A stretch of DNA of 64,000 nucleotides from contig JBGUOI010000202.1 of the NCBI GenBank assembly GCA_045118075.1, positions 7,741-71,740 of the forward strand, read 5' to 3'. This DNA is from Porcincola sp. Lineage in GTDB: Bacteria; Bacillota; Clostridia; Lachnospirales; Lachnospiraceae. Shown here piece by piece: positions 2,554-35,179 of the stretch; position 1 is the first letter of the stretch, and the number at the start of each line of letters is the position of its first letter. A program made the position numbers and the translations under genes. The notes beneath the pieces were generated by a model. That model made no database searches. It was given only the letters and a program-made list of their open reading frames with translations, and was not told the DNA's origin.

Positions 2554-2564
2554 AAGCTGCCTCC

Positions 2565-4938: not shown

Positions 4939-4955
4939 TAATGTCCGCCTGTCAG

Positions 4956-6089: not shown

Positions 6090-6102
6090 CCCGTCTCCTT
6101 TA

Positions 6103-6324
6103 TTATTTCTCCATCAGGGCAACGATGTCGCCGACTGTCTCGAAACCGCGGATAATGTCAGCGGTAAGCTTCACGTCGAACTCATCTTCCATCAGAACGA
6201 TCAGGGACAGTTTTGCCATTGAATCGTACTCATCGATATCATCAAGGATCGTCTCGACCGTCAGGTCTCCCTCGTCCAGTTCCAGCATATCCTCGAGCAG
6301 CGCCAGTTTTTCGCGTTCAGTCAT
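6103..6324 (-). CDS. acyl carrier protein-like phosphopantetheine carrier
   Basis: 73 aa, acidic. DEYDSMAKLSLIVLMEDEF contains the D-S-(L/M) phosphopantetheine-attachment serine context. Confidence 0.75.
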   Translation of the reverse strand: MTEREKLALLEDMLELDEGDLTVETILDDIDEYDSMAKLSLIVLMEDEFDVKLTADIIRGFETVGDIVALMEK

Positions 6325-6399
6325 TTTCAGTTTTCCTCCTTAAATGTTGATCTATCTCCCAACCCCTGCTGTGCGGGGGATCGGTCCGTTAATTACTTT

Positions 6400-7476: not shown

Positions 7477-7502
7477 GTGATGTATTCTCCTTTTCTTCTT
7501 TA

Positions 7503-8270: not shown

Positions 8271-8283
8271 TCTGTCACCTCCG

Positions 8284-11151: not shown

Positions 11152-11163
11152 GATCTCTCCTCC

Positions 11164-12300: not shown

Positions 12301-12335
12301 CTTCCCGTTCCTTCCCCGGCTCTGTTTTCCGGTGA

Positions 12336-13646: not shown

Positions 13647-13648
13647 TT

Positions 13649-15700: not shown

Positions 15701-15735
15701 CTTTCAAGGCCTCCTCATAAACTGCAGCGGAATTC

Positions 15736-16824: not shown

Positions 16825-16857
16825 CGCAGCTGATCACCTCCTTCCGAAATTGTCGTT

Positions 16858-19800
16858 TTAATCTACGGGTTTGCGGTCCTGGTCATATCGGTTGTCGATC
16901 ACCAGCTCACCGCTGCTGTTGTAATGACCGTTCCAGCCGGCCACCCCGTCTACATTGTTGGTCAGATTGTAGAAGCGGTCCAGATAGCGCTCCGAGACGA
17001 GCCTTCCGTCCTCATCGAAATCGCGCTCGATGCTGGCGTAGCCTTCTTTGCAGTTGGTCTGGACATGGTCCTCGTCGTAGTAGCCTTCCCAGGTCACCAC
17101 TCCGGCTTCGTTCGTCTCATATTCATAGATCGCGTAACCGTCCGTGGTACTGACGGGATTGCCGTCCTGATCAATGTATGTGACCTCATGAATGAGTGTC
17201 AAAGGATAGTAGAGAATACTCTTTCCCCAGGCTCCGTTGGCCGCCTCGACCGGCTGCCCCTCCGTATCCATGTAGTAGGAATAGTACAGTTCTTCCTTCT
17301 CCTGATCACTCAGCTCATACTCATATTTTACGGAAGCGTAACCCTCGGAATTCATTGCAGGATTTCCTTCCGCGTCGAGCCAGACCTCCTGCTCCAGGTT
17401 TCCGTAGCCGTTGTACTCGCTCTCCACCCCGAAAACGCCGTCCACCTCGGTCGGGTTTCCGTCCGCGTCATAGTAGTGGATCTCTGAGATGTTGCCGGTG
17501 GTCGTGTATCCGTACTCCACCATGCTGCAGCCTTCCGGTCCCACAGCGGCCGATCCGTCCTCATTAAAATACTTCTGGCGGATAATGCGGTCATATTTAT
17601 CGAAGTCAGCGATGGAGTAAGCCACTCCCTGCTCTTCGGTGGGAACGCTCTTTTCAAGCCGCATCTCATATGCGCCGTATTGAGGTTTCTCCGTGATCAG
17701 TTCTCTTTTGGTATAACCGTCTGCCGACATGTACGGTCCGCCTGCGGCAGTCCGGTAGTACTCCTCCGCAATGCGTCCGCTGTCCGTGTACCGAATGTGG
17801 TGTTCGGAATAGCCTTTTTTGTTGTTTATGCGTTCATCCGCCTCGCTGAAGTATTCCTCATCGGTCAGGCGGCCTTCTTCGTCGTAAACGATCAGGGAGT
17901 GGGAGTATCCCGTCTCTGCGGACGTGGCGCCCAGCTGCCGGCTGTTGTAGTATTCCTCGGAAGTCTGGTTGCCCAGATCGTCGTAGGTATAGGCCGCCAT
18001 GGCATATCCCATGGTCGTATCGGTCAGCTGTTCGTTGGCATCGTAATACGACTCTTCAACGACATCTCCCAGGTCGTTGTATTTGGTCTTCATGATGGCG
18101 TATCCGCGCTGGCAGACACACAGCTGGCCCGCACGGTCATAATAGCTCTCACTTGTCTGGCGCCCGGCCAGATCATAGGTATAGCGTGCGGAAGCATACT
18201 CACCGTTGTAGAGGACCGGCTGTCCGGAAATATCGAAATAGCTGACAGAGAGAACATGGCCGTCCATGTCCACTGTCCTGGTCAGCCAGGAATACAGTGT
18301 CTTGTTGTTGACAGCCGGTTTCCCGTCAATATTGAGCAGATGTTCCTCGATACAGAAATTACGTTCATCATACGAGTAGGTAATGATGCTGTAACCGTTG
18401 CTGCACCAGGTCTGCTCGCCCTCACGGTTAAAGAAAGCCTCACGGATAAGATTGTCGTTGTTGTCATAGCCGGAGGTAAGCGCTGCGTATCCCTTGCTGA
18501 GAATGATGGGACGCCCCTCTTCATCGAGGTATTCCTTCTTTATATTCCTCCGACGCTCATCAAAAGTATTGCGGACCATAGCATAGCCGGCGCCGCACAG
18601 AATAGGCTGGTCCTTGACATCCAGGTATGTCTCGAGAAGGATGTCTCCGTTCTTATCGACCTGACGCGTCATAGCTGCATAACCGTAGCTTGTGTACGTT
18701 CTCTCCAGCTTGTCGTCATAATAGGTCAGGCGCGTCACATACTGGTTCTCATCGCGCTCGTATTCCACCGCAGCATATCCGGCTTTGGAAATGACCAGGT
18801 CACCGGAACCGTCCACATAGGAGCGGCGCCAGATCAGGCCGCTGTTGTCGCGTTCATATTGAATACCGGCATATCCGGCGGAGATCGTCACAGGCAGGCC
18901 GTTCTTATCCAGATAAGTCTCGCTGATCCTGCGGTTGTCGCCGTCGTAGGCATAGACAACGGATGAGAAGCCAAGCGCCGTCTCTGACGGCTGCAGCGCT
19001 GCCGACAGGTAGTCCTCGCGCAGGATATTCCCGCGCGCATCATATGAAGTATGCGTAACGAAAATACGGTCTGTCAGTGAGGATATTCTCTCCTGTTCAT
19101 CCAGATACTGCTCCATCACGATATGGCCCTTCTGGTCATACTCGCGCTGGTGAACGGAGAAGCCCTCCGGAAGTCGAATCAGGCTGTCATCCACATCCAG
19201 GTAACGTTCCTGCAGCGTCCGGTCCGCATAGTCGTAAATATATGCGATCGCAGAGAAACCCTTCGCGTTGATCACGCGCTTCATTCCGGTATCCAGATAG
19301 TTTTCCTGCGAAACACGTCCGCGCTTGTCATAATCATAGGCGATCGCGGCGTATCCGCCCTCTGTCATAACGATCTCCCCGCCTTTATAATAGACGGAGC
19401 GGGTCAGGTTGTCATCGCCGTCGTACTCATGGCTTATCAGATCATATCCGTCCGGGAGCACGGCTGCCTTGCCTTCACCTGCGTAGTAGGCTTCTTCAAT
19501 GCAGTTGCCGTGTTTGTCGCGGGCATAAGTGACATAGTTATATCCGCCGTCCTGTATGGCGGGTTCGCCGTTGGAATCGTAATATCCTTCGCTGGTCAGG
19601 AAGCCCTGTGAATTCCAGGTCTGCACCAGTTTGGCATAGCCGTCCCGGGTGACCATCATATCACCGTTCTTATCGAAGAACGTCTTCGTCAGCAGATGGC
19701 CGGTTCCGTTATAGGTGCATACCATCTTCGCGTAGCCGGCGGTGGAGACAACGTAATTATTGTCAGCATCGAAGTACTCTTCCGTGAGGATGTTGCCGTA

Positions 19801-22758
19801 GGGATCGTAGGTAAATCTGCGGGAGGCATAATCCCCACGGACCATGTAAGGCTGCTTGCTCTCATCGTAAAAGTTCTCGGTAAGCAGGCGGTTCTGATCA
19901 TCGTACGTTCTTCTCACGATGGCGGCGCCGGCCTTGACGGATGTGATCCCGCCGTCCGCACCGTAATAGACCTCTCTGGTCAGATTGCCCCGAAGATCAT
20001 ATTCACGGACAAATGTGGCGTATCCCTTCGGGCAGACGGCACGATTGCCTTCCGCGTCATAGTAAGACTCCCGGGTCTGGTGTCCGTCCGCATCCCAGCG
20101 GAATGTGGCTTTCTGGTACCCGTCACGAATCGTGACAGGTTCTTTATTCTCATCATAATAGGCGACCGATGTCCGGTTCCCCATGGAATCGTAGGTCACT
20201 TTCTCCAGGGCATAGCCCTTGAGGATCTTTACCGGCTTTCTGTCCGCATCCAGGAATGCGGTCGCTGTGCGGACACCGTCAGCGTTGAATGACTGGAGCA
20301 GGACAGCATAGTTTTCGCGGTTGGTGATCAGTTTGCCGTCCGCGTCATAATAAGCCTCCTCAAGCACATTGCCGTACTTATCGCATTTGCGGGTAAGTCT
20401 GGCATAATCTTCGGAGGAGGGAACGATCAGCTGCCCATTCTCATCATAGAATGACTTTTCAAGGAGTTCCCCGTTCCGGTCATAGGTCTGGGTAAAGGAT
20501 GCATAACCCTTATGGATCCGGGTCGGCTTCTCATCCACATCCAGATAATCCGTCCTGCTCACCATTCCCGTGAGTTCGTCATAGGTATGGAAAACGGCAT
20601 GATACCCTTCCGGCAGCAGGGTCGGCTCAAGGTCGGATCCGTAATAGCGCTCCCAGATCTTATTATGGTGGTCATCGTAAATATACACCGTTCTTGCCCG
20701 TCCGTTGGATACGACCGGCTCGTCCTGTGCATTGTAATAGGTGACCACGGCCAGATTGCCGGCCAGGTCCCAGTGGGTGACGACCGTCGCATAGCCCTGC
20801 GGCTGGGTCAGCACTTCACCGTCCGCCGAGAAATAGCGCAGACCGGTGCGGAATTTACCATAAGGATAAGAGCGCACTGCAGCGGCATACTGTCCGCCTG
20901 CGGACACAAGATGGCCATCGGCATCGAGCAGCGCTTCCCACAGAGGATACCCGTTCTTGTTATACTCATAGAGGAGAGCCCAATAGCCCAGCTGAGTATT
21001 GCATGGTTTGCCGCTCTCATCATAATAGCGGGCTGATGACTGAATACCGTCGTGAGTGTAATTGAACACGGCATGGTGGGCTCCCGTGGAGATGGCGGTG
21101 TCCGGATTGCCGTCCTTATCGAAATACTTCTCTTCAAACAGCAGTTTCTTATCCGGTCCGCCGTACCTCATGGACCGGGCGTAATAGCCTTCCTTCTTTT
21201 CGCACGGTTCTCCTTCTTTATCATAATAAGATTCATAGACCGGCGGCGCGTCGATCTCATCGGAATCATACTGATACTGAATAGAGGCATACTGGAACTC
21301 ATCGTTTCGGGTGGGTTTCCACTCATGATCATAGTAAGTCGTGGAAATGACCTGACCATTCTCGTTGCGTTCGTTGATATAGCCGGCTATGCCGGCTTTG
21401 ATCTCGATCAGCTCAAGATCCGTACCGAAGTATCTCTCCCGGCGGATCTGGTCGAGCGCGGTCTTTATACGCGGCGTCTCGTGCCATTTAAATTTCGGAG
21501 TATCGGCAAACAGGAACTCAATCCGGCAGAAGCCGTTGTTGCCCATGGTATACTGGCCTACCGTATCGTAATATGTGTACCGGTAATCATAATCCGGACC
21601 GTTGTATTCATATTCCACGACGGAGTAGCCGTTCCGGGTCATGGTCGGCTGGTCGTCTGCTCCGAAGAACCGCTCATAGTGCTTGGTTCTGGACTTACCG
21701 TAGTATTCGAAAGTAATCTTCGCCTGGCCGGATTCGGATTTGATCAGATTCTGGTCCTCGCCCAGATATTTCGTTTCGATCACACGCTGCAGATCATCAT
21801 AGGTATAAACGACACTGGCATATCCTTCATCGGCCTGGATATACTCTCCCTCCGTATCGAAATAATCGGTCCGGGTAAGGTGTCCGTATTCATTGTACTG
21901 GTTGACCTGGCGGTGATAATGATCCGATCCGAGCACCTGCTTTCCGTCGGAGTTATAGATCTCCTCCTCGAGCAGCCGGTATACGCTGTACGCGTCCGCA
22001 CCCTTGCTGGTATCGGGAATCGGGACTTCCACGAATCTGGCGACCTTTTCTGTGGGGATCTCTTCCTTATCATAGTACTGCGCAACATACTCGGATACGA
22101 TGATCGCCCCGCCTTCGGGTCCGTTCAGGAGAGCGCCGTCCTCATCCAGATAGGTCTTCTTTATCGTCAGTTCTTCCTGCCCGTTATATTTATGTTCGTA
22201 AAGAATCTGGGCATATCCGCCTACCGGGCGGGTCAGTTTTCCGTCCGCCCCGAAGTATTCCGTAGACTTAAGCGTAGCGCCTTCCCAGGTGTCTCTCCGG
22301 TAGCTGTAGCTTCCCGGAATATCCGCGCGGTTCCCCTGCGCGTCAAAGCGGTCTTCTGTTACGGGATAGGAATTGCCTTCCTCATCGGTATACCAGGTAT
22401 ACTCCGCCCGGGCATAACCCAGGTCGGTTACCACCAATTCTCCCGACAGGCCGTAAAAAGCTTCGGTCAGCAGATTGTCATACTCATCATAGGTATATTC
22501 AGCGCGGTTAAATCCCCTGGCGTTGACTGCCGGAGCCCCATCGAGAGTGTGTGCTTTCTCGGCGATCAGGTTTCCGTGTTCGTCCCATTCACAGTCAGTT
22601 TCCGTAAATTCAGGCAGCTTCAGAGAATCAAGAATAGAAGCATCGTCGCCCTGATCGAGCAGGATGCTCCTGTTTGATGCTGCCTGCAGTGAAGCTGGCA
22701 TCAGCGCGCATATAAAACTTATTGATAAAACAGCGCAGCCTTTCCAGACTTTTTTCAT
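16858..22758 (-). CDS. giant secreted repeat protein (1966 aa), YD-like 32-33-residue tandem units, function unknown
   Basis: AGGAG RBS, and signal peptide MKKVWKGCAVLSISFICALMPASLQAAS. The rest is tens of units of the form GYA-x5-YD-x2-GN-x3-E-x-Y-x-D-x2-G-x-P. No anchor, enzymatic or toxin domain was recognised. Confidence 0.85.
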   Translation of the reverse strand: MKKVWKGCAVLSISFICALMPASLQAASNRSILLDQGDDASILDSLKLPEFTETDCEWDEHGNLIAEKAHTLDGAPAVNARGFNRAEYTYDEYDNLLTEAFYGLSGELVVTDLGYARAEYTWYTDEEGNSYPVTEDRFDAQGNRADIPGSYSYRRDTWEGATLKSTEYFGADGKLTRPVGGYAQILYEHKYNGQEELTIKKTYLDEDGALLNGPEGGAIIVSEYVAQYYDKEEIPTEKVARFVEVPIPDTSKGADAYSVYRLLEEEIYNSDGKQVLGSDHYHRQVNQYNEYGHLTRTDYFDTEGEYIQADEGYASVVYTYDDLQRVIETKYLGEDQNLIKSESGQAKITFEYYGKSRTKHYERFFGADDQPTMTRNGYSVVEYEYNGPDYDYRYTYYDTVGQYTMGNNGFCRIEFLFADTPKFKWHETPRIKTALDQIRRERYFGTDLELIEIKAGIAGYINERNENGQVISTTYYDHEWKPTRNDEFQYASIQYQYDSDEIDAPPVYESYYDKEGEPCEKKEGYYARSMRYGGPDKKLLFEEKYFDKDGNPDTAISTGAHHAVFNYTHDGIQSSARYYDESGKPCNTQLGYWALLYEYNKNGYPLWEALLDADGHLVSAGGQYAAAVRSYPYGKFRTGLRYFSADGEVLTQPQGYATVVTHWDLAGNLAVVTYYNAQDEPVVSNGRARTVYIYDDHHNKIWERYYGSDLEPTLLPEGYHAVFHTYDELTGMVSRTDYLDVDEKPTRIHKGYASFTQTYDRNGELLEKSFYDENGQLIVPSSEDYARLTRKCDKYGNVLEEAYYDADGKLITNRENYAVLLQSFNADGVRTATAFLDADRKPVKILKGYALEKVTYDSMGNRTSVAYYDENKEPVTIRDGYQKATFRWDADGHQTRESYYDAEGNRAVCPKGYATFVREYDLRGNLTREVYYGADGGITSVKAGAAIVRRTYDDQNRLLTENFYDESKQPYMVRGDYASRRFTYDPYGNILTEEYFDADNNYVVSTAGYAKMVCTYNGTGHLLTKTFFDKNGDMMVTRDGYAKLVQTWNSQGFLTSEGYYDSNGEPAIQDGGYNYVTYARDKHGNCIEEAYYAGEGKAAVLPDGYDLISHEYDGDDNLTRSVYYKGGEIVMTEGGYAAIAYDYDKRGRVSQENYLDTGMKRVINAKGFSAIAYIYDYADRTLQERYLDVDDSLIRLPEGFSVHQREYDQKGHIVMEQYLDEQERISSLTDRIFVTHTSYDARGNILREDYLSAALQPSETALGFSSVVYAYDGDNRRISETYLDKNGLPVTISAGYAGIQYERDNSGLIWRRSYVDGSGDLVISKAGYAAVEYERDENQYVTRLTYYDDKLERTYTSYGYAAMTRQVDKNGDILLETYLDVKDQPILCGAGYAMVRNTFDERRRNIKKEYLDEEGRPIILSKGYAALTSGYDNNDNLIREAFFNREGEQTWCSNGYSIITYSYDERNFCIEEHLLNIDGKPAVNNKTLYSWLTRTVDMDGHVLSVSYFDISGQPVLYNGEYASARYTYDLAGRQTSESYYDRAGQLCVCQRGYAIMKTKYNDLGDVVEESYYDANEQLTDTTMGYAMAAYTYDDLGNQTSEEYYNSRQLGATSAETGYSHSLIVYDEEGRLTDEEYFSEADERINNKKGYSEHHIRYTDSGRIAEEYYRTAAGGPYMSADGYTKRELITEKPQYGAYEMRLEKSVPTEEQGVAYSIADFDKYDRIIRQKYFNEDGSAAVGPEGCSMVEYGYTTTGNISEIHYYDADGNPTEVDGVFGVESEYNGYGNLEQEVWLDAEGNPAMNSEGYASVKYEYELSDQEKEELYYSYYMDTEGQPVEAANGAWGKSILYYPLTLIHEVTYIDQDGNPVSTTDGYAIYEYETNEAGVVTWEGYYDEDHVQTNCKEGYASIERDFDEDGRLVSERYLDRFYNLTNNVDGVAGWNGHYNSSGELVIDNRYDQDRKPVD

Positions 22759-22776
22759 AGTTGCTCCTAAATAAAT

Positions 22777-24237
22777 CTATCTCTTCTTTCGGCGAATATT
22801 CTGTCCGCCCTTTTCCGCCCGCCCGGTCGTTTCCGCCCGCTGGTCGGTTTTCCCGTAATATTTCTTATAATAATATCGTTTCCGGTAATATCCGCCTTCC
22901 TCGAGCTTTTCCCCGTAAAAGACAAAGCCCATGACATTCATTCCGGTCAGTTCGGCTGCATTCAGCGCTTTCTTAAGATCCCGGTGATCGGAGAAGTTCT
23001 GTCTGGTGACAAACAAACATCCGGCAACCTGCGAAGACAGTACCAGCGGATCGGTCACGATATTGACCGGCGGCATATCAAGCAGCACCAGTTCATATTC
23101 TTTCCCCATCTCGTCCAGGATTCGGGTCATGTGTTCCGACCCGAGCAGTTCCGCAGGGTTTGGCGGGAACTTGCCTGAAGGAAGAAGATCCAGCGACTCA
23201 TGGATATTCCTGATCACGGCATCCTGCCAGCGGCAGTCTCCCAGCAAAGCCTCGGACAGGCCGTTCTTAGCCTTCTCATAGTTAAAGATATCCCGCTGGC
23301 AGCCCCTGCGCAGATCCGCATCGACCAGCAGTACTTTTTTCCTGCTCAGCGCACAGGAGATCGCAAGGTTCGCCGCAATGGTGGATTTACCTTCACCCGA
23401 AACAGCGCTGGTAACGACCACCATATTCGACGGTTTATCCACCAGGGTATAGAGCAGATTCATTCGGAGCCTTGCATAGCTCTCCATCTGTTCCATGGGA
23501 CTCTTTTTGGTCAGCACAAAATCGCCTGCATCGGAATCATCCCCTTTGATGCGTCTTATGGAGGAGAGAACCGGAGGCTCATAATTCTCGGTAAGGTCCT
23601 TTTCATCTGTGATCCTGCGGTTAAACAGGAAGATCAGGAAGATCACGCCCAAACCGAGTATCGTACCGGCCATGGCACCGATCACGCCTCTGCGCATCGG
23701 CCTGCGGTTGTCCGCGTGTTCCGGCACGGAGGCATAGTCTATCACTTCAACGCTTCCGGCGCCGACAACGCGGATGATCTCCGCAGGTGCCACGTCAAGC
23801 ACGGTATTGCATATGTCAGCGGAGAGCTGCGGCTCCCCGGTTATGGAGCTGACCCTCACCACACCGGTATCCGCAATGGAATTCATGCCGAGCGATCCGG
23901 AGATAAACGCGGGCTCGATGCCCGGATAATCACGGGACAGCCGTTCAGCCACCACATCCATGACCTTTTTGCTCCGGACGACGATCATGTAAGTATCGAT
24001 CAGTTTAACGGCGGAGTCAAGATCCGTGGTGCTGGCATACTGGTAATTGACCAGATTCGGATTGCCGTTGAAGACATACATTGTCCCGGATGCCGTGTAG
24101 GTATTGGGAAGCCGGAAAGTGGTATGCCAGTAGCGATAGCCGAAGCCAAGGACAGCCAGCGCGATGGGAATCCATATCCATTTGACAATATACTTCACCA
24201 GTTTGGATAAATCAATAATAATTTCATTATCATTCAT
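22777..24237 (-). CDS. fused Wzz-type co-polymerase / BY-kinase (CpsC-CpsD in one polypeptide)
   Basis: 486 aa with two TM segments flanking a Wzz-like loop. It has Walker A SAVSGEGKSTIAANLA, Walker A' VLLVDADLRR, Walker B LVLLDMPPV, and a C-terminal tyrosine cluster GGYYRKRYYYKKYYGK. Confidence 0.85.
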   Translation of the reverse strand: MNDNEIIIDLSKLVKYIVKWIWIPIALAVLGFGYRYWHTTFRLPNTYTASGTMYVFNGNPNLVNYQYASTTDLDSAVKLIDTYMIVVRSKKVMDVVAERLSRDYPGIEPAFISGSLGMNSIADTGVVRVSSITGEPQLSADICNTVLDVAPAEIIRVVGAGSVEVIDYASVPEHADNRRPMRRGVIGAMAGTILGLGVIFLIFLFNRRITDEKDLTENYEPPVLSSIRRIKGDDSDAGDFVLTKKSPMEQMESYARLRMNLLYTLVDKPSNMVVVTSAVSGEGKSTIAANLAISCALSRKKVLLVDADLRRGCQRDIFNYEKAKNGLSEALLGDCRWQDAVIRNIHESLDLLPSGKFPPNPAELLGSEHMTRILDEMGKEYELVLLDMPPVNIVTDPLVLSSQVAGCLFVTRQNFSDHRDLKKALNAAELTGMNVMGFVFYGEKLEEGGYYRKRYYYKKYYGKTDQRAETTGRAEKGGQNIRRKKR

Positions 24238-24261
24238 TGCCGGTTTTTTCCTCTTTTCCGA

Positions 24262-25413
24262 TTACTCGGAGATGACCAGGTGCCTCTGCTTAAGGTTGAC
24301 GTTCAACGCGCCTGACAGGAATTCCTCGATCGTATCGGCATGCTGCGCCAGATTCAGGTCATAGTCCTTGTTCATTCCCTGGATCCTCAGCACCAGCTCG
24401 CTGCCTGCATTCTCAGCGACCACATCGAAGGCTTCCTCGTCCAGTTCGATCAGGGTGACTTCCTTGCTGGTCATTCCATCGACGGATCCTTCCTGCCATC
24501 CCTTTTCGAGGTTTGCCACCGCATATCCGTGGCGGAGGATGGCTCCCTGGACATAGGGACGTCTCGATCCCGAAGAACTGACTTCGATGACCGGTCTTAC
24601 CGCAACGATATTCTTTTCACTGCGGCGGACATCCACGTACATTTTCACATCAATGGTCATCCGGTCGACTGCCCGTCCTTCTTCTACGATCTGACCCAGC
24701 ACAATGCCTTCTCTGGTCAGATCGATCCGGCCGGTTCCCTCGAAGGTGTCGTAGGTAAAGACCCACTTGGTGTCCAGGAAATTGCGAAGTGTTTCGATAT
24801 CTTCCACATCGTTCACGATCGCCCTGAACTTATCCTCCACGCGGACCACCGGCGGATAGGCCACATTCAGCGTTTCCGCCTTCACGGTATTCGGATCCGC
24901 TTCGCGAAGGGCTTCAAACCAGCAGGAAGCATCGACGACACCGGTCTGCGCCAGCCCCTGCGATTTCTGGAATTCTTTCACCGCGCCTTCCGTGCCGGGG
25001 CCGAAAGCTCCGTCCACTCCGCCTTCGAGATACTTCAGGTCATTTAATGCCTGCTGCAGCGTACTGACACGATCTCCGGAAGAACCGGACCTCAGATCCT
25101 CCCATTCAGTCAAAGACGGGAGGGCGTCAAGGTCGAGAGCCGGGATCGACGCCGCTATCTCTTCAAGAGGTACGTATCCTGTCTTCCCGCGTCCGTAGGA
25201 GATCGCAAGATAATTCTCGTTCACAACGCCGAGCGCATCCAGCGAGTCCAGCGACGGATGAAGGGACACCGCGTCCTCATCAAGGTCTTTTAATACCGTC
25301 AGAGAACATTTTTCTTTGCCTGAAAACACCACTTCCTGTGCCAAAACGGCGCCTGACATGCAGCCAGACAGGACCGCGCCTGCCAGAAACAGGCCCAACA
25401 TTCTTTTTCTCAT
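24262..25413 (-). CDS. lipoprotein with a peptidoglycan-binding (PG_binding_1-like) domain
   Basis: 383 aa. Lipobox LSGC at residues 15-18. VSTLQQALNDLKYLEGGVDGAFGPGTEGAVKEFQKSQGLAQTGVVD matches the PGBD helix bundle. The C-terminal ~200 aa are unassigned. Confidence 0.7.
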   Translation of the reverse strand: MRKRMLGLFLAGAVLSGCMSGAVLAQEVVFSGKEKCSLTVLKDLDEDAVSLHPSLDSLDALGVVNENYLAISYGRGKTGYVPLEEIAASIPALDLDALPSLTEWEDLRSGSSGDRVSTLQQALNDLKYLEGGVDGAFGPGTEGAVKEFQKSQGLAQTGVVDASCWFEALREADPNTVKAETLNVAYPPVVRVEDKFRAIVNDVEDIETLRNFLDTKWVFTYDTFEGTGRIDLTREGIVLGQIVEEGRAVDRMTIDVKMYVDVRRSEKNIVAVRPVIEVSSSGSRRPYVQGAILRHGYAVANLEKGWQEGSVDGMTSKEVTLIELDEEAFDVVAENAGSELVLRIQGMNKDYDLNLAQHADTIEEFLSGALNVNLKQRHLVISE

Positions 25414-25415
25414 GA

Positions 25416-28400
25416 CTACTTCTCCTCTACCTTGACTACGTTGCCGTACACATCCTTATATTCTTTGGTTACTTTTCCGTCTTCCGAATAATGATAATCG
25501 ACCCGGACATATTTTTTGGATCCGACCGGAGCCGGTACCCCGCCGGCATTATAATATGCCGTCCCGATATGTTTGCCGGCATCGTTGTAAGTCGTTTCGT
25601 ACCTCGAATAGCCGGATTTCGTCTGCACTTCGTTTCCGTATGCGTCATAATAGGTGATCAGCACGGTGTTTTTGTCCGGATATTCTGTCGTCGTCTGGGC
25701 GTATCCCGATTTGCACGCCGTAAGGTTTCCTTCAGCATCCAGGAATTTCCTTCGGATCTCTTTTCCTTCATCGTTATATTCCATGGCGATTCCGGCATAT
25801 CCCGCATCCACCGTGATCGGGTCATCGTAGAAGCCGTAGTACCTTTCGAGCACGACATTGTCATCGCTGTCGTATTCGCGTTTGACCACGTGGTACCATT
25901 TATCGACGGGCATCACCTGGAAACCTTCCTTAGTATAATAGGCTTCATAGGTCTTGTTGCCCCGTTCGTCATATTCATTGACCACTACCGCGTAGCCGTC
26001 TTCGTTGTCCACCCGCTGGTCATTGAGATCAACAAAGGTGCTTCTGACCGGTTTTCTCTGCTCGTTGTATTCCTTGATGGTCGCCGCATAAGGCTTATCC
26101 TTGCGGTTGATCTGGTTTCCCTGCGTGTCATACCACTTTTCAAAGATCACATTGCCGGCTTCATCAAACTCACTGGTGGTCATGGCATAACCGGCTTCGA
26201 GCATGACCGGTTCACCGTCGGTCCCCAGATATTCCGTTTTTACGACCTTTCCGTCATCGGAAGACTCGCGGCGGATGGAGCTGTATCCCTTCGGAAGGAC
26301 CGCCGCCTGACCGTCCGCATCGAAATAGGAAACCATCACGACCTGCCCTTCGTCGTTGTAGATACGCTGCACAGTAGCATACCCGCCGATATTCATGGGT
26401 TTGCCGGCCGCATCCATGTATGTCTCCCGGGTGACCTTTTCGTCTTCATTGTATTCCTTCTCTGTCCAGGCACATCCCTTCGACTCAAGAATAAGCAGTC
26501 CGCCTGCATTGAATTTCTTCTTGGACGTCTCGTTGCCGGCCGCATCAAAGGTACGCAGCGTCGTTGCCGCGCCGTTCACTTCCACGGGAAGCCTCCGGTC
26601 ATCGTAATAGCGGGTAGCGATCTCATTGCCGGCCGCATCATAGTCATGGTAGGCAAGGGCATACCCTTTGGCTTTATTCACCGCCAGTGCGTCGTACATG
26701 TTCAGGTAAGCTTCCATGACCCGCTTCCCGTTGCTGTAGGCAGCCTTGTAACCGCTGTAGCCTCCCATGTCACGGCGTTCATTCATCCGGTTGAAGTATT
26801 CAGCCTTGATCAAATGATCTTCATCATCATATACGTAAGTGGCCCTCGCATATCCCCGCTCATACGGATAAACAGGATAACCATTTGCGTTATAATAGGC
26901 TTCCTCCGTTTTATTGCCGTTTGCATCATACAGACGAACCACGATCGCGTAGCCTGAAGCGGTCATGCAGTATTCTTCATCCGTCCCCACATAAGCTTCC
27001 CGGATAATGTTTCCGCCCTTATCATAGGTCCGGTTGACTCCGGCATAACCTTTCCGGGTCAGCATCAGTTCCCCGTTTTTATTGTAATAGCGCTCGGTCA
27101 CTTTGTTGCCGAGGTTATCGTAGGTAAAGCCGATCTGGTAGTAGCCGTCTCCCATGGGCGTCGGTTCGCCCAAAGCGTTGAAGTAACTCTCCTTTGCCAG
27201 ATTGCCGTCATGGTCGTATTCACGCTTCACATTGGCATAGCCTCTGGCTGAGATAAGTTCTTCATGCTCGTCAAAGAAAGAGACACTCACGACATTGCCG
27301 GCTTTATCCACTTCGCGCACGACATGGGCGTAACCCTTCTTTGTGTTGACGACTGGCTTGTCCTCATCATCCAGGTACTTCTCATCGAGCTTTGTGTTCT
27401 TATCGAGATAGACCGCGTCATACCCGCTGATTCCGGTTGAAAGAGTGATCCTCCGTCCGTCCGGCCCGAAGTACCGCTCGGAGCTGACCAGTCCCTGGTC
27501 GTCATAGGTGTATTTAACTGCGGCATAACCGGCTGACTTTGACATCACGCTGCTGCCGTCCGTACCCAGATATCTTTCTTCGGTCTTCTGGCGCAGAACG
27601 TTATATTCACGTTCGACCACGGCATAACCGTTCTTTACGGCGACAGGCTCATCGTTCTCATCATAATAGGAAACGCGGATCACATCTCCCATGCCGTCAA
27701 CATCGCGTACCACGCTGGCATAGCCAAGGTCTGCATTCATGACCGGTCTGCCGCTGCGGTCGAGCCACATTTCTTCGAGCTTCGTACCGTTATTATGGTA
27801 GACGCAGCGGTAACCGCTCACGCCGCTGGGCAGGACGATCGGTCTGCCGTCCATCCAGAAATACCGCTCACCGCTTACGCGGCCTTTCTTATCGTACTCA
27901 TACTTGACCTTGGCATAACCCAGGCCGGCAACCACCATGCCCTGTCCTTCCTCATCAAGATAGCTCTCGGAGGTTTTCTGGTGGCGGCTGTTGTATTTCA
28001 TGTTGACTACCGAGTAGCCTTCGTTCACCATCACCGGCTGGTAATTCTCATCGAAGTAGGAGACGCGGATAACATTGCCCAGTCCGTCGACCTGGCGGAC
28101 GATGTGGGCATATCCCGCTTCCCTGTTCATCACCGGCTGGTCATCTTCGTCCAGCCACATCTCGTCAAGTTTGATCTTCTCGTTCAGGTTGAGGCACTTG
28201 TAACCGCTCACTCCGTTCTCAAGGACGATCCTTCCGCCGCCCGTGCTGAAATAGCGCTCGCAGCAGACCATTCCCTGAACATCATATTCGTATGTGATCG
28301 ATGCGTAACCGCCGGAACGCAGAAGTACCGGCATGCCGTAGCCATCGAAATAACTTTCACGGGTCTTGCGTCCTGCTGCATCGTACTCTCTTGTCAGCAT

Positions 28401-31400
28401 CGCGTAACCTTCACGCTGAGCCTCCAGCCTGTCATTCTCATCGTAGAACGTGACCTTCACGATATTTCCGTGCTGGTCGGTCTCACGTTCGACCCTGGCA
28501 TAGCCTTTTTCAATATTGAACGCAGGATTTCCGTCCTCGTCCAGCCACTGTTCTTTCAGCCGGTTCTTCTCATCCAGATTTACGATATCGCATCCGGCCA
28601 CACCGGAGGCAAGCGTAATGGGCCTTCCGTTCGTTCCGAAATAGCGCTCGCTTGAGACAAGGCCCTGCCTGTCATACGTATATTCCACGCTGGCATAGCC
28701 GGCACCGGGCTTGAGGATCGCCTGGCCGGTACGGCCGAAGTAGCTCTCCTTTGTCATCTGCTGCACGTCATTGAACTCACGTTCCACGGAAGCAAAGCCT
28801 TCCTTGACCGTGATCGGATGATCCTGCTGGTCAAAGAATGAGATGCGCGTGATGTTCCCCTCCGCATCCGCCTCACGCTTTACATGAGCGTAGCCGACGT
28901 CCTTGTTGATCACGGGCTGATCCTTCACGCCTATGAACTGCTGTTCAAGCTTGACCGATTTGTTCAGGTTGACACAGGTAAAGCCGCTGATATCGTTGCC
29001 CAGCGCGATCCGCCTGCCGTCATCGCCGTAATAGCGTTCCGCACTGACCAGTCCCATCTCGTCATATTCGTAGGAGATCGCCGCATACCCTTTGGACGGC
29101 AGCTTGATCAGTTCATTGTCCTCGTCGTAATAGCTTTCTTTGATCTTTTTGCCGTTTTCGTCATATTCCCTGGCGACAGCGGCATATCCGTCACTCAGGC
29201 GGATGGGATCGTCAAACTCGTCAAAGTAGGCCACGTGGTAGACCAGTCCCGATTCATCCGCATCGCGGATGATATGAGCACAGCCTTTCTTGAGGTTGAT
29301 GATCGGCTCGTCATTTTCGTCGATCCACATTTCCTCGAGCTTGACGTTGTCGTTAAGGTAGTTCACGCGGTATCCGCTTGAACCGTCAGAGAGTGTGATC
29401 CGCTTTCCGTTAATGCCGAAATAGCGCTCGCAGCACACATATCCGCGCTCATCATATTCGAAAGTTACGGCCGCATAGCCTCCTGACGGCAGAAGAATTG
29501 CCTTGCCGTTTTCGCCGAAGTAGCTTTCGCGTACTACCTGCCTCTCATCATTGTATTTCCGAACGATGGTCGCATAACCTTCGTCAATGGTGACAGGCTT
29601 ATCCGATGCATCGTAATAGGACTCTCTTAAGATATTTCCGTTTTCGTCGAGCTCCCTCTGGACCCTGGCATATCCCAGCTTCAGGTTCATGGCCGGCGTC
29701 TCGTCAACATCGAGCCACAGTTCTTCGAGTTTAGTGGTCTTGTTGTGGTTGACGGCTTTGTAGCCGCTCACACCGTTGCTTAAGCGCGTGCGGCTGCCGT
29801 CCGGGCCGAAATAGCGCTCTGCGCTGACCAGACCCTGGTCATCATACTCGTAAGTAACGGCAGCGTAGCCGGCACTGGGCAGGATCGTCAGGTTTCCGTC
29901 CACGTCGAAGTAGCTCTCCATGATGACTTTTCCGTTTTCATTATAGTCTCTGGAGACAAACGCATAACCCTGCTCGACCTCGATCGGGTCAAGGTTCTCG
30001 TCGTAGTAAGCCACATAATAGATCAGGCCGTCCTCATCAACATCGCGGACCACATAAGCGAAACCGGTCCTTGAGTTCATCACGGGCTGGTCGTTCTCGT
30101 CCACGAACATCTCTTCGAGCTTGATCTTCTCATTCAGGTTGATGGTGCTGTAACCGCTGATCCCGTTCGAGAGCGTGATCCGGTTTCCGTCTTTTCCGTA
30201 GTAACGCTCGAAGTTCACCAGCCCCATCGAGTCGTATTCATAAGTGATGGATGAGTAGCCGGCTCCCGGCAGGATGGAGGGATCTCCGAACTTGTCGAAA
30301 TAGCTCTCCCTTGTGACCTGTCCCCACTCATCGTATTCCCACGCGATCGAAGCATATCCGTCCGTGGAGACTGCCGGATTTCCGTCCGTCCCCAGATAAG
30401 TCTCACGGGTCTCGTTGCCGTCATCGTCATACTCAAATACGATACCGGCATAACCGGCACCGGGAAGGATCCTCGGTTCCCCGTTCTGGTTAAAATAGCT
30501 TTCCTTCACGATGCGGCGTTCGTCATCATATTCACGCCTGACCGTGGCATAGCCGCCTACCTGGATGATCTCTCCGTTCTCTCCGTAGTAGGTCTCGGCT
30601 GTAATGTTTCCGTCATCGTCGTACTCATAGCCGATGCCCGCATAGCCGGATCCGGGCAGACGGACAGGATTGCCGTCTCCGCCAAGATAGCTTTCTTTGA
30701 TCTTCCGGCTCTCGTCGTCATACTCCCTGAGTACCACGGCGTAGCCTTTTTTCTGAACGGCCAGGTCCCCGTTCTCATCGTAGAATGACACGCTTGTGAT
30801 ATTGCCTTTATCATCCTTTTCACGCTTAACGCGCGCAAAACCTGCTTCCTCATTGAACACGGGCTCATCGTTGACCCCGATCCATATCTGTTCGAGTTTT
30901 AATGACTTGTTCAGGTTAACGGCGGTGTATCCGCTCGTGCCGTTCTCAACAAGGGTCCTTTCCCCGTCCTCTCCGTAATAACGTTCGGCACTGACAAGTC
31001 CGTCCTCGTCATATTCATATTCAACAGTCGCATAACCGGTCGAAGGAATCGCGACAAGGTTTCCTTCCTCATCGAGATATCTTTCCAGCGTCTTATGCTG
31101 ATGATCGTCGTATTCCCGCTCCACCGCGGCGTAACCCGACTTCTGGGTGAGCGGCTTATCGTTTTCATCGTAGAATGAAACCCGGACGATATTCCCGGAT
31201 CCATCCTTTTCCCTCACAACATGCGCAAAGCCGGCATCTTCATTCAAGGCCGGCTCATCATTTTCGTCAAGCCAAAGCAGCTCAAGCTTTGTATCCTCGG
31301 ACAGGTTGACCGCGTCATACCCGCTGACCCCGTTTTCGAGCGCCATGCGCTCCCCGTCCGGACCAAAATAACGCTCTTTACAGACTAGTCCCTGGTCGTC

Positions 31401-31712
31401 GTACTCGAAAGTGACACCGGCATAACCGAAGCCGGGAAGGATGACGCTCTGGCCGTCCGTGTCATAGAACCACCGTGAGAGCACAAAGCCCTCCGCATTT
31501 GTCTCCGTTCGTTCGAGCCATTCGGATTCTCCGTCTCCGACTATTTCTCCGTCAGAATCGACGTAGTGTTCCTCTACCGATGTAAGATCTTCTGCCGGAA
31601 CCTCGGTGCTTAACGTCTCAGGCTCCACACTTTCCTGTGCGGCAGCCTGGGCTGTCATCATCAGCAGGAAGCCCAGAGTCACCAGGCTTTTCCGGATCAT
31701 CTTCTTTCTCAT
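25416..31712 (-). CDS. giant secreted repeat protein (2098 aa), same YD-like unit organised in 130-aa super-repeats, function unknown
   Basis: GGAG RBS, and signal peptide MRKKMIRKSLVTLGFLLMMTAQAAAQE. Tandem repeats fill the whole length. Paralogue of 16858-22758. Confidence 0.85.
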   Translation of the reverse strand: MRKKMIRKSLVTLGFLLMMTAQAAAQESVEPETLSTEVPAEDLTSVEEHYVDSDGEIVGDGESEWLERTETNAEGFVLSRWFYDTDGQSVILPGFGYAGVTFEYDDQGLVCKERYFGPDGERMALENGVSGYDAVNLSEDTKLELLWLDENDEPALNEDAGFAHVVREKDGSGNIVRVSFYDENDKPLTQKSGYAAVEREYDDHQHKTLERYLDEEGNLVAIPSTGYATVEYEYDEDGLVSAERYYGEDGERTLVENGTSGYTAVNLNKSLKLEQIWIGVNDEPVFNEEAGFARVKREKDDKGNITSVSFYDENGDLAVQKKGYAVVLREYDDESRKIKESYLGGDGNPVRLPGSGYAGIGYEYDDDGNITAETYYGENGEIIQVGGYATVRREYDDERRIVKESYFNQNGEPRILPGAGYAGIVFEYDDDGNETRETYLGTDGNPAVSTDGYASIAWEYDEWGQVTRESYFDKFGDPSILPGAGYSSITYEYDSMGLVNFERYYGKDGNRITLSNGISGYSTINLNEKIKLEEMFVDENDQPVMNSRTGFAYVVRDVDEDGLIYYVAYYDENLDPIEVEQGYAFVSRDYNENGKVIMESYFDVDGNLTILPSAGYAAVTYEYDDQGLVSAERYFGPDGSRTRLSNGVSGYKAVNHNKTTKLEELWLDVDETPAMNLKLGYARVQRELDENGNILRESYYDASDKPVTIDEGYATIVRKYNDERQVVRESYFGENGKAILLPSGGYAAVTFEYDERGYVCCERYFGINGKRITLSDGSSGYRVNYLNDNVKLEEMWIDENDEPIINLKKGCAHIIRDADESGLVYHVAYFDEFDDPIRLSDGYAAVAREYDENGKKIKESYYDEDNELIKLPSKGYAAISYEYDEMGLVSAERYYGDDGRRIALGNDISGFTCVNLNKSVKLEQQFIGVKDQPVINKDVGYAHVKREADAEGNITRISFFDQQDHPITVKEGFASVEREFNDVQQMTKESYFGRTGQAILKPGAGYASVEYTYDRQGLVSSERYFGTNGRPITLASGVAGCDIVNLDEKNRLKEQWLDEDGNPAFNIEKGYARVERETDQHGNIVKVTFYDENDRLEAQREGYAMLTREYDAAGRKTRESYFDGYGMPVLLRSGGYASITYEYDVQGMVCCERYFSTGGGRIVLENGVSGYKCLNLNEKIKLDEMWLDEDDQPVMNREAGYAHIVRQVDGLGNVIRVSYFDENYQPVMVNEGYSVVNMKYNSRHQKTSESYLDEEGQGMVVAGLGYAKVKYEYDKKGRVSGERYFWMDGRPIVLPSGVSGYRCVYHNNGTKLEEMWLDRSGRPVMNADLGYASVVRDVDGMGDVIRVSYYDENDEPVAVKNGYAVVEREYNVLRQKTEERYLGTDGSSVMSKSAGYAAVKYTYDDQGLVSSERYFGPDGRRITLSTGISGYDAVYLDKNTKLDEKYLDDEDKPVVNTKKGYAHVVREVDKAGNVVSVSFFDEHEELISARGYANVKREYDHDGNLAKESYFNALGEPTPMGDGYYQIGFTYDNLGNKVTERYYNKNGELMLTRKGYAGVNRTYDKGGNIIREAYVGTDEEYCMTASGYAIVVRLYDANGNKTEEAYYNANGYPVYPYERGYARATYVYDDEDHLIKAEYFNRMNERRDMGGYSGYKAAYSNGKRVMEAYLNMYDALAVNKAKGYALAYHDYDAAGNEIATRYYDDRRLPVEVNGAATTLRTFDAAGNETSKKKFNAGGLLILESKGCAWTEKEYNEDEKVTRETYMDAAGKPMNIGGYATVQRIYNDEGQVVMVSYFDADGQAAVLPKGYSSIRRESSDDGKVVKTEYLGTDGEPVMLEAGYAMTTSEFDEAGNVIFEKWYDTQGNQINRKDKPYAATIKEYNEQRKPVRSTFVDLNDQRVDNEDGYAVVVNEYDERGNKTYEAYYTKEGFQVMPVDKWYHVVKREYDSDDNVVLERYYGFYDDPITVDAGYAGIAMEYNDEGKEIRRKFLDAEGNLTACKSGYAQTTTEYPDKNTVLITYYDAYGNEVQTKSGYSRYETTYNDAGKHIGTAYYNAGGVPAPVGSKKYVRVDYHYSEDGKVTKEYKDVYGNVVKVEEK
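27400..31430 (-). repeat. in-frame diverged tandem super-repeat, period 390 nt (130 codons), about 10 copies, inside the 2098-aa gene
   Basis: The codons for E-R-Y-(F/Y) appear on the plus strand as gaaatagcgctc or close (1-3 base) variants. They sit at 27468, 27858, 28248, 28638, 29028, 29418, 29808 and 30198, exactly 390 nt apart. Confidence 0.85.
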
Positions 31713-31732
31713 CGCCGTTCTCCTAAAAACAA

Positions 31733-31778
31733 GTCTGGCCGGAGCCCGTCAAAGACGGGCCTTCCGGCTGATGGGTCC
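31733..31778 (-). terminator. intrinsic terminator-like / attenuator hairpin between the 244-aa and 2098-aa repeat-protein genes
   Basis: The minus strand reads GCCGGAA-G-GCCCGTC-TTT-GACGGGC-TCCGGC followed by CAGACTTGTTTTTAGGAG. A 13-bp GC-rich stem and a T-run lie immediately before the RBS of the giant gene. Confidence 0.45.
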
Positions 31779-31822
31779 CTTTCGGGAAATATCTGTTTCT
31801 GTAATATTACCTGATCGGATGA

Positions 31823-32554
31823 TCACTCTGTGATCTCGCTTCCGTCCGGAGCGTAATTGGTGGTCACCTTGCTGCCGTCCTCGTTATACACGGTGACGAA
31901 ACCGGCAAGATCTTTGCCGGGAAGCGCAATGGGCTCTTCGTCAGCGCCGAAGTAAGCTTCCTGAGTCTTGCGGCCTTCCTCATCGTAAGCTCTTGCGACT
32001 ATGGCATAGCCGGAGGGAGTCACGACAAGATTGTCATCAGCGTCGAAGAAGCTGACCAGGACAACATTGCCTTTTTCATCCGTGCCGCGTGTTACGTGAG
32101 CATAACCAGCCTCAGTGTTCATGACCGGCTCGTCATTCTCATCCAGCCATACCAGATCCAGCGGGAATCTTCCGCCGGAAGACTTAAATCCGCTCACACC
32201 GTTCTCAAGCGTGATACGATTGCCGTCAGCGCCGAAATAACGCTCGGCTGTGACATCGCCGTTCTCGTTATATTCATACATGACACAGGCATATCCTTTA
32301 GCCGGCAGTACGGCAAGTTTTTCGTCCATATCGCTGTAGCTGACTGCTACGACCTGTCCGTCTTCACTTAAAGCGGTGGTTTCGATAAAAGCAGCACCTG
32401 CTTCGTCGGTGACTTCTCCGGCCTCATCCAGATAAACGACCTGCTGATCTTCCGCCTCAGCGGGCATCTCGGTCTCTGCCGCGAATGCTGCTGCGCTCAT
32501 CATCAGGATCATGCTGCCTGCGAGCAGTCCGTTCCAGAACATTTTTCTCTTCAT
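31823..32554 (-). CDS. small secreted repeat protein (243 aa) corresponding to one 130-aa super-repeat of the giant paralogue
   Basis: The ORF-track start at 32710 is trimmed to ATG 32554, which follows AGGAGGACAGCA. Signal peptide MKRKMFWNGLLAGSMILMMSAAAFAAE, then GYACVMYEYNENGDVTAERYFGADGNRITLENGVSGF...GYAHVTRGTDEKGNVVLVSFFDADDN...GYAIVARAYDEEGRKTQEAYFG. Confidence 0.75.
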   Translation of the reverse strand: MKRKMFWNGLLAGSMILMMSAAAFAAETEMPAEAEDQQVVYLDEAGEVTDEAGAAFIETTALSEDGQVVAVSYSDMDEKLAVLPAKGYACVMYEYNENGDVTAERYFGADGNRITLENGVSGFKSSGGRFPLDLVWLDENDEPVMNTEAGYAHVTRGTDEKGNVVLVSFFDADDNLVVTPSGYAIVARAYDEEGRKTQEAYFGADEEPIALPGKDLAGFVTVYNEDGSKVTTNYAPDGSEITE

Positions 32555-32884: not shown

Positions 32885-32920
32885 GAAAAACTCCGGCAGG
32901 AGGCACGCCGGAGCTTTTCT
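32885..32920. terminator. bidirectional intrinsic terminator closing the GH3/ABC operon
   Basis: CTCCGGC (32891-32897) and GCCGGAG (32907-32913) form a stem. It is flanked by AAAAA upstream and CTTTTCT downstream, so on the minus strand the hairpin is followed by TTTTTCTG. It lies 74 nt after the GH3 stop. Confidence 0.55.
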
Positions 32921-32986
32921 GAAGGAATTTAGCTATGAAAAAGCTGTTATTTATGTTGTGTCTTTTTTATCTTTTTACTTTCCGCT

Positions 32987-35104: not shown

Positions 35105-35179
35105 GGCTCCCTCCCGTTCTTATGGTTTTTCTTTTCTGTTTCCTTTTGTTAACGAATTTCTGTTATTCCGCGTGAGGCA

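Follow-up and report, generated by a model that had tools for sequence, protein, structure and literature searches.

A giant secreted YD-repeat protein encoded between the tyrosine kinase and the LCP ligase of a Lachnospiraceae surface-polysaccharide locus

The guidance and organisation of long surface polysaccharides through the thick Gram-positive wall are poorly understood, and the conserved machinery of capsular polysaccharide (cps) loci is thought to consist only of a LytR-CpsA-Psr (LCP) ligase, a phosphatase, a polysaccharide co-polymerase (PCP) and a kinase. In this work, a stretch of 64,000 nucleotides from Porcincola sp., a member of the Lachnospiraceae (assembly GCA_045118075.1, contig JBGUOI010000202.1, positions 7,741 to 71,740 of the forward strand; hereafter the window), was analysed, in which three genes for secreted repeat proteins, here called A, B and C, lie within a predicted polysaccharide operon. 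These three are structural extracytoplasmic proteins tied to Wzx/Wzy-dependent surface-polysaccharide assembly, and they are not toxins. Gene A is located between the gene for a fused PCP and bacterial tyrosine kinase (BY-kinase) and that for an LCP ligase, forming a triad that is found, in a clade of Lachnospiraceae, where capsule loci have their conserved machinery genes, and its product is very probably coupled in function to capsule assembly. If this is true, A represents a fifth, very large and strictly co-inherited extracellular protein of the cps machinery, a component newly implicated in assembling or retaining the capsule of bacteria whose family is dominant in gut and rumen. The YD-shell fold would then also have its first clear use outside toxins and eukaryotes. 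The novelty lies in a long-period YD-repeat family acting as a non-toxin extracellular component of polysaccharide assembly.

This coupling is suggested by the orthologues of A, which were collected from 21 loci (L001, L002, L007, L011 and 17 metagenome contigs) and show 46-85% identity. A scan of the genome collection found A in a single species-representative genome, that of Lachnospiraceae bacterium UBA4348 (85% identity). The 17 aligned orthologues fall into at least 10 lineages with less than 60% identity between lineages; the orthologues are 1915-2011 aa long, keep their register position by position, and carry a net charge of -104 to -166 in all cases. The PCP/BY-kinase gene directly precedes A in every upstream flank that could be read (19 of 19), and the LCP gene directly follows it in every readable downstream flank (16 of 16). 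The sequence upstream of the kinase is variable, with extracytoplasmic function (ECF)-type sigma factors, a two-component system, an AAA ATPase, a radical-SAM/PqqD/ScmC cluster or a Cys-rich open reading frame (ORF). Downstream of the LCP gene, about three quarters of the loci contain CapD, DegT, Bac_transf, pyruvyl-transferase or NusG-like genes, and a CapD/DegT/Bac_transf set similar to that of the window lies 3' of the triad in four of them (L011, L021, L023 and L028). Since these flanks differ while the order kinase-A-LCP is constant, the triad behaves as a selected unit. A first-pass annotation, made by a model from the letters of the window, had regarded the repeat genes as parts of the operon rather than inserted cargo, and the strict co-inheritance of A with the BY-kinase and LCP genes over at least 10 lineages amid changing outer flanks agrees with that view. 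In two diverged A-loci, a conserved ORF of 486 or 502 aa lies just upstream of the kinase gene (L002:5897-7354, minus strand; L020:822-2327); it contains CxxC pairs and an acidic middle, gives no Pfam hit, lacks a signal peptide and may encode a regulator.

The repeat architecture of the three proteins conforms to what was described from the sequence at first reading. All three ORFs are present on the minus strand with the coordinates and lengths given in Table 1, and each product begins with a signal peptide composed of a basic n-region, a hydrophobic core and an AxA-type cleavage site, read from the sequence as LQA/AS, AQA/AA and AFA/AE in A, B and C, respectively, where the slash marks the predicted cleavage. 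After the signal peptide, the proteins are tiled end to end by units of 32-33 residues, an arrangement recovered both by identity autocorrelation, with maxima at lag 32 in A (0.187) and at lag 130 in B (0.304, with lags 65, 33 and 32 raised too), and by a hidden Markov model (HMM) of the unit built from A, B and C themselves (consensus GYASVEYEYDEDGNVTRESYYDEDGEPVV), which counts 54 units in A, 61 in B and 7 in C. The period of 130 residues in B corresponds to a super-repeat of four units, one of them degenerate, which is present in about 11 copies, and C consists of a signal peptide followed by exactly one super-repeat of the B type. Tandem Repeats Finder detects no tandem array at the DNA level, so the units must be old and diverged. 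Both giants are strongly acidic (net charge -145 in A and -143 in B) and rich in tyrosine (10.6% and 9.1%, respectively).

Apart from the signal peptide, A, B and C have no transmembrane segment; they also lack an LPXTG-like motif in the last 120 residues, any enzymatic or toxin domain, and any Pfam match to SLH, CWB2, choline-binding, GW, LysM or WxL modules. The earlier statement that anchors, enzymatic domains and C-terminal toxins are missing is accordingly upheld by Pfam, by the motif scan and, for A, by the structural model. In composition, the three are Sec-exported all-beta proteins, very acidic and rich in tyrosine, with a long-period (32-33 residue) variant of the Rhs/YD hairpin as their only building block.

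The assignment of the units to the YD type is based on motif and structure. At positions 7-16, the 54 units of A show Y(37%)-x-Y(56%)-D(63%)-x-x-G(61%)-N/R(49%)-L/V/I(58%)-T/L/I(66%), and this Y-x-Y-D-x-x-G-[NR]-[LVI]-[TLI] pattern reads as the canonical Rhs/YD core. Profile searches, which had been proposed as a check, give a divided answer: B reaches 36 bits summed over RHS_repeat (cut-off 22) with no single stretch passing, and C gives only E 0.1 against this family, whereas A has no Pfam match up to E 1, RHS_repeat PF05593 included. Against NCBIfam, A and B have no match, C has one at chance level (E 0.045, 13 bits, cut-off 234), and TIGR01643 is matched by none of the three. A sequence search of the PDB with B and with a profile of the 130-residue super-repeat returned chance matches only (E at least 0.18), none of them to a repeat protein. 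Structure prediction was the second proposed check. The two overlapping halves of A modelled with AlphaFold2, residues 28-1101 (mean predicted local distance difference test, pLDDT, 88.4; predicted template modelling score, pTM, 0.73; alignment of 35 sequences) and residues 870-1966 (pLDDT 89.7, pTM 0.46), both consist of YD-type hairpins, in which each unit is built from two strands of 6-7 residues and a connector of 13 residues. When the halves were compared with the PDB by Foldseek, the top 47-48 hits were all Rhs effectors, TcB/TcC, teneurins or SGS1, with probability 1.00 and E from 1e-10 to 6e-36.

The overall geometry is less certain than the local fold. Compared with Rhs shells, the N-terminal half reaches TM-scores of 0.14-0.29 and the C-terminal half 0.26-0.40, at root mean square deviations of 15-34 A. 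The local architecture of A is thus of the YD type in these models, which do not superimpose on a closed cocoon, and of the shell geometry attributed to the repeats at first reading, they support the hairpin, with the closed form as one possible shape.

With such structural relatives, it must be asked whether the three proteins could be polymorphic toxins of the Rhs type, or emptied remnants of them with a YD shell that once enclosed a C-terminal toxin. Every significant structural match is to an Rhs, Tc or teneurin shell, and the weak RHS_repeat signal in B points the same way; even so, this explanation is highly improbable. The aspartyl autoprotease motif DPxG[LWIVF], of which DPxG[LW] is the form at the Rhs core, occurs nowhere in A, B or C. 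In the model of A, the hairpin units run uninterrupted to the last residues, with no plug, enzyme, toxin or other additional domain at the C-terminus, and this C-terminus is conserved among the 17 A orthologues rather than polymorphic. No small immunity-like ORF accompanies the genes, the next ones being the LCP gene after A and the lipoprotein gene after B; a PAAR, VgrG, LXG or Tc-A partner is missing, and Pfam finds no delivery domain in A, B or C. The failure of the models to superimpose on closed cocoons (TM-score at most 0.40) also argues against a toxin shell. The toxin candidate was therefore rejected on the missing motif, the hairpins reaching the C-terminus and the non-toxin neighbours.

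A, B and C can also be compared with characterised YD proteins. The Rhs/YD shell proteins, represented by the Rhs effectors of type VI secretion systems (7q97, 8qja-d, 8cp6), by TcB/TcC (4o9x, 4igl) and by Bacillus subtilis WapA, have in common with A the hairpin motif YxYDxxG[RN]L[IT] and, as far as the models indicate, a continuous antiparallel hairpin sheet. They differ in a period of about 21 residues, against 32-33 in A, and in their genomic partners, which are secretion-system genes rather than BY-kinase and LCP genes; moreover, A, B and C possess no N-terminal plug, Rhs core protease motif, toxin tip or immunity gene. By fold and motif, A, B and C belong to the YD/Rhs superfamily, yet they fail every defining feature of an Rhs toxin. 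Teneurins (6fb3, 8r54, 9ifo; Foldseek E 1e-19 to 3e-28) show that a YD-type fold can serve as an extracellular scaffold with a structural or adhesive, non-toxic role, although A lacks their NHL propeller, FN-plug, EGF and Tox-GHH parts and reaches a TM-score of at most 0.29. Heparin binding by the YD repeats of teneurins has been reported.

Beyond the orthologues, the repeats of A define a large family that is linked to glycan assembly in its own right. A phmmer search with half of A against 1.84 billion representative proteins recovered 4036 clusters at E up to 1e-3 and 1100 at E up to 1e-30. This family of more than 1000 clusters is missed by Pfam and NCBIfam, which constitutes an annotation gap; the A orthologues themselves make up about a dozen of the representative clusters, mostly fragments, and those that are named appear at NCBI as 'hypothetical protein'. 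Among the 120 best relatives of B, four architectures were observed: a signal peptide followed by repeats; a short cytoplasmic tail, transmembrane segments and repeats; a domain of about 750 aa with 11-14 transmembrane segments followed by repeats; and a TIR, Ser/Thr kinase or nSTAND NTPase domain followed, where detected, by a transmembrane segment and then by repeats. In the last group, the transmembrane segment was detected in 27 of 31 proteins and lies between the cytoplasmic domain and the repeats. Because transmembrane segments separate the repeats from the cytoplasmic domains, the repeats are extracytoplasmic, and they are always so throughout the family. The fusions of the last group imply that the array serves as a sensor ectodomain too. 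Single-pass proteins of this kind, with TIR, Ser/Thr-kinase or nSTAND domains (the last with PDZ), include P0009, P0017, P0023, P0040, P0048 and similar sequences; two of the nSTAND-type matches were named as Planctomycetota and Hydrogenedentes, and one TIR match as Lachnospiraceae.

The polytopic domains of about 750 aa are of particular relevance to polysaccharide assembly. They form one family and are always fused ahead of the repeats (P0022, P0046, P0051, P0054, P0061, P0079, P0086, P0087, P0104, P0107 and P0119, as well as residues ~480-1225 of P0028). Against Pfam and NCBIfam, they give only a sub-threshold match to Wzy_C, in 2 of 11 proteins, and hhalign against two Wzy sequences gives a probability of 28% in local and 72% in global mode; the domain may represent a new family of Wzy- or ligase-like polymerases. 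In P0028 and P0072, it is fused behind a Wzx flippase (Polysacc_synt, E 4e-27), so that the same polypeptide contains flippase, Wzy-like domain and repeats. These Wzx and Wzy-like fusions make the idea of a role in assembly directly testable.

Gene neighbourhoods could be read for 10 family members that are not orthologous to A, and eight of them lie beside or inside glycan loci. P0028, with its Wzx, polytopic and repeat parts, neighbours GT2 and GlmS genes; P0050 is flanked by CapD-type genes in a Wzy/Wzx/Glyphos_transf locus; P0008 has acyltransferase and CapD genes nearby; P0061 stands at the end of a NeuB/CMP-sugar (nonulosonic-acid) cluster in Butyrivibrio sp. XPD2002; P0104 belongs to a pyruvylT-Wzx-GT2-Rml...Bac_transf locus without another Wzy; and P0014 is beside Wzx, GT10, acyltransferase and MBOAT genes. 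P0006 is situated 6 kb from a kinase-A pair, and P0003 is syntenic with the window. Radical-SAM, PqqD and ScmC (PF27840) genes recur beside family members, and together with short ORFs and often an ABC exporter they look like maturation sets for ribosomally synthesised and post-translationally modified peptides (L007:5829-8072; L029:4915-8381 and 19552-25404; L030:15900-23774; further L016:14277-15425, L024:16396-17538 and L035:3002-3988). One such set lies directly upstream of a kinase-A-LCP triad.

The three proteins had been treated at first reading as one unit, and the comparison of loci does not support this part of the proposal: A is the conserved core, and B, C and the lipoprotein with a PG_binding_1 domain encoded next to B are absent from all 17 metagenome A-loci. 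These three genes were found only in the close relatives of the window (L001, L008-L011), where the B orthologues have 61-99% identity. A similar pair occurs elsewhere: after P0004, a secreted giant of 2121 aa with 27% identity to B, L032 and L033 encode a protein homologous to the lipoprotein (28% identity over 283 aa, including the unannotated C-terminal domain; E 1e-22), in a locus with no polysaccharide genes. Since the pairing of B with the lipoprotein recurs at 27-28% identity without polysaccharide genes, it constitutes a second, separable module, and the set of C, B and the PG-binding lipoprotein is an accessory, lineage-specific module apart from kinase-A-LCP. In one metagenome strain with 99% identity (L008:9323-10349), the lipoprotein matches only residues 1-117 and 192-383, the PG_binding_1 domain being missing; either a deletion or a faulty assembly could account for this.

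As to function, we lean, on balance, towards A, B and C being extracellular scaffolds that handle or bind polysaccharide, a role suggested by their sequences and gene neighbourhoods. In this mechanism, the kinase-A-LCP triad would stand in the place of the streptococcal cpsA-D genes, A would dock near the ectodomains of the co-polymerase and the ligase, and it would bind the growing or newly ligated chain so as to hold or organise polymer within the wall and above it. B would be attached to the membrane and to peptidoglycan by the lipoprotein, which would explain why B has no anchor of its own, and C, with its one super-repeat, might cap or extend the edge of the B sheet. The fixed length of A (about 60 hairpins) and its position-specific conservation favour a defined assembly over an adhesin of variable length. 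A stronger version is conceivable, if on the unlikely side: A could belong integrally to the machine that assembles the capsule in this clade, as a beta-sheet track, ruler or conduit of fixed size on the ectodomain of the PCP/BY-kinase. In that position, it would bring the nascent chain across the thick wall to the LCP ligase and set the length or layering of the polymer. It would then be a Gram-positive functional counterpart of the trans-envelope complex Wzc-Wza, and the Wzx/Wzy-like/YD fusions of related bacteria would be the single-polypeptide version of this machine.

The invariable position of the LCP gene directly after A also admits another relation between the two products, namely that A is the acceptor substrate of the adjacent ligase and that the glycan is moved from undecaprenyl-pyrophosphate onto A to give a protein-glycan conjugate. 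In Actinomyces oris, the LCP enzyme LcpA glycosylates the surface protein GspA, which is small and sortase-anchored (PMC6381275). As in that system, an LCP enzyme would be paired with a secreted protein; in addition, A has no wall anchor of its own, and the triad can stand without nearby sugar genes. There is, however, no homology between A and GspA, and the pairing of A with LCP is deduced from gene order; A carries no LPXTG motif, and it displays no apparent glycosylation sequon or Ser/Thr-rich acceptor region. An LCP gene beside PCP and kinase genes is also normal content of a cps 5' region, as in streptococcal cpsA-D. The computed features do not discriminate between an acceptor and a binder, and we regard the acceptor role as quite unlikely.

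Several observations weigh against the scaffold interpretation. Sugar genes do not follow the triad in three of about 12 loci with enough downstream sequence (L007, L016 and L026), where ABC/GH35 genes, NTP_transf_5 with a transposase-like gene, or VanZ/MscS are found instead. The distant family member P0031 has no glycan neighbours, and P0004 is the other exception. The predicted linkage of homologues has accordingly held for the A orthologues with respect to the kinase and LCP genes and for eight of the 10 other members with respect to glycan genes, and failed for P0031, P0004 and, as far as sugar genes are concerned, these three triads. Glycan binding by A, B and C is itself a proposed property, and both A and a pyruvylated polymer would be anionic, so that binding would need cations or neutral epitopes. 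The continuity of the operon is deduced from short gaps and from the lack of convincing internal promoters or terminators. Finally, the low TM-scores (0.14-0.40) and the pTM of the C-terminal half (0.46) leave a ribbon, a spiral and a closed shell all possible for A in the models.

Part of this evidence would suit ordinary adhesins or biofilm-matrix proteins that are merely co-regulated with an exopolysaccharide and play no physical role in its assembly or retention. The giants are large, secreted, repetitive and acidic like many matrix adhesins, a B-like giant and its lipoprotein occur as a pair in L032 and L033, where cps genes are missing, P0031 is not set among glycan genes, and P0006 adjoins a GGDEF response regulator. 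Co-regulation, however, leaves unexplained why A holds exactly the slot between kinase and LCP in at least 10 lineages amid changing surroundings. Adhesin arrays usually vary in copy number, whereas the length and register of A are conserved, and there are relatives in which a Wzx flippase, a Wzy-like membrane domain and repeats of this family belong to a single polypeptide. An adhesin without a part in polysaccharide assembly is, on this evidence, rather improbable, and the scaffold role remains the preferred interpretation.

Two further types of system are helpful for comparison with this scaffold role. The 5' region of streptococcal cps loci comprises cpsA (LCP), cpsB (phosphatase), cpsC (PCP) and cpsD (BY-kinase). 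The window resembles it in having LCP and PCP/BY-kinase genes at the head of the locus, with variable glycosyltransferase and polymerase genes downstream; it differs in that PCP and kinase are fused, that no CpsB-type phosphatase was seen in the locus, and that a secreted YD-repeat protein of about 2000 aa is a conserved member between kinase and ligase. To our knowledge, no cps 5' region with a giant YD-repeat protein has been described. The arrangement had not been recognised as a described system at first reading, and no description of kinase-giant-LCP was found in the literature covered, which included the M. gnavus capsule and lipocone papers and subscription journals thinly. Anchors that bind wall polymers, such as SLH domains with pyruvylated secondary cell wall polymers, CWB2 with PSII of C. 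difficile, and choline-binding repeats with teichoic acid, offer a functional analogy only: their repeats hold surface proteins non-covalently to a wall glycopolymer, their genes are often near those of the polymer, and the window contains two pyruvyl transferase genes. In those systems, the repeats are an anchoring module, whereas in A, B and C they are the whole protein.

The remaining content of the locus is typical of polymer biosynthesis (Table 1). On the minus strand, C is the first gene of the predicted operon, followed by B, the PG_binding_1 lipoprotein, the PCP/BY-kinase, A, the LCP ligase and then the sugar and assembly genes assigned by Pfam. The identities given earlier to the three neighbours interleaved with the repeat genes were confirmed by Pfam and by the sequence features of the kinase, whose orthologues in L002 and L007 have a PF02706 Wzz domain. 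The PCP/BY-kinase, LCP, phosphoglycosyl transferase, Wzy and glycosyltransferase genes all lie on one strand with short gaps. Wzx was not seen in the window operon, which may extend beyond base 1 of the window. The window locus is a Wzy-dependent Gram-positive capsule or exopolysaccharide locus with a fused PCP-kinase and an LCP ligase, and with an extra conserved giant in its conserved region. The genes A, B and C occupy 12.9 kb of approximately 32.5 kb of this locus, as had been calculated before.

Table 1. Features of the polysaccharide locus in the window (positions in nucleotides of the window).
Feature	Position	Strand	Description
RNA hairpin and T-run 3' of the upstream GH3 gene	32886..32913	minus	CTCCGGC-9 nt-GCCGGAG TTTTT
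Gene C	31823..32554	minus	secreted, 243 aa
RNA hairpin in the C-B spacer	31738..31768	minus	GC-rich; UUGUUUUU run 8 nt after it
Gene B	25416..31712	minus	secreted, 2098 aa, YD-type units in super-repeats
PG_binding_1 lipoprotein	24262..25413	minus	PG_binding_1 E 3.5e-18; lipobox LSGC; C-terminal domain unannotated
Fused PCP (Wzz-like)/BY-kinase	22777..24237	minus	P-loop (Walker A); two transmembrane segments; C-terminal tyrosine cluster YYRKRYYYKKYY
Gene A, core giant	16858..22758	minus	secreted, 1966 aa, YD-type beta-hairpin units
LytR-CpsA-Psr (LCP) glycopolymer ligase	15736..16824	minus	PF03816, E 3.9e-13
Genes for first (reducing-end) sugar and initiation, set of four	9403..15700	minus	Pfam
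Polysacc_synt_2 dehydratase	13649..15700	minus	Pfam
DegT aminotransferase	12336..13646	minus	Pfam
GT4	11164..12339	minus	Pfam
Bac_transf phosphoglycosyl transferase	9403..11151	minus	PF02397
Variable part of glycan operon	409..9375	minus	Pfam
KASIII	8284..9375	minus	Pfam
SDR	7503..8270	minus	Pfam
KASIII, second	6400..7476	minus	Pfam
GT1	4956..6089	minus	Pfam
Wzy_C polymerase	3604..4938	minus	PF04932
Pyruvyl transferase	2565..3641	minus	Pfam
GT2	1546..2553	minus	Pfam
Pyruvyl transferase, second	409..1545	minus	Pfam

The start of C was reconsidered on the basis of its upstream sequence. The longest ORF begins with TTG at 32710, the ATG at 32554 has AGGAGG 6 nt ahead of it, and the corresponding 243-aa form is also called as a gene in two metagenome contigs with 99% identity (L008 and L009); this ATG is most likely the true start. 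About 330 nt of non-coding sequence lie upstream of C, and the hairpin at the 3' end of the GH3 gene is likely a terminator that sets the 5' boundary of the operon; it was not listed by the terminator scan because its loop is 9 nt long.

Within the operon, gaps of 2-35 nt had been claimed throughout. Five of them (2, 24, 18, 33 and 35 nt) fit this claim, and the exception is the C-B spacer, which measures 110 nt and contains a stable hairpin. The spacer region (131 nt) folds with -39.5 kcal/mol (z -2.5), and the terminator scan did not flag the hairpin, which may act as a partial terminator or as a transcript-stabilising element; the small protein C may be expressed above B. An Rfam scan of positions 15000-33200, in which a c-di-GMP riboswitch in particular was sought, yielded two chance hits only and no riboswitch. 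Promoter and terminator matches over 15000-33500 are as frequent as in shuffled sequences, and they neither support nor break the operon.

Some minor features of the surrounding genes were also recorded. Two KASIII genes flank an SDR gene in the glycan operon (6400-9375), which suggests an acyl or hydroxyacyl decoration of a sugar, and the Bac_transf protein (9403-11151) has an unannotated C-terminal extension of about 390 aa. Upstream of the operon, positions 32987-39706 encode a GH3 glycosidase, two ABC sugar permeases and a solute-binding protein on the same strand, together with a divergent AraC regulator, and this sugar-uptake unit is apparently set off from the operon by the terminator-like hairpin.

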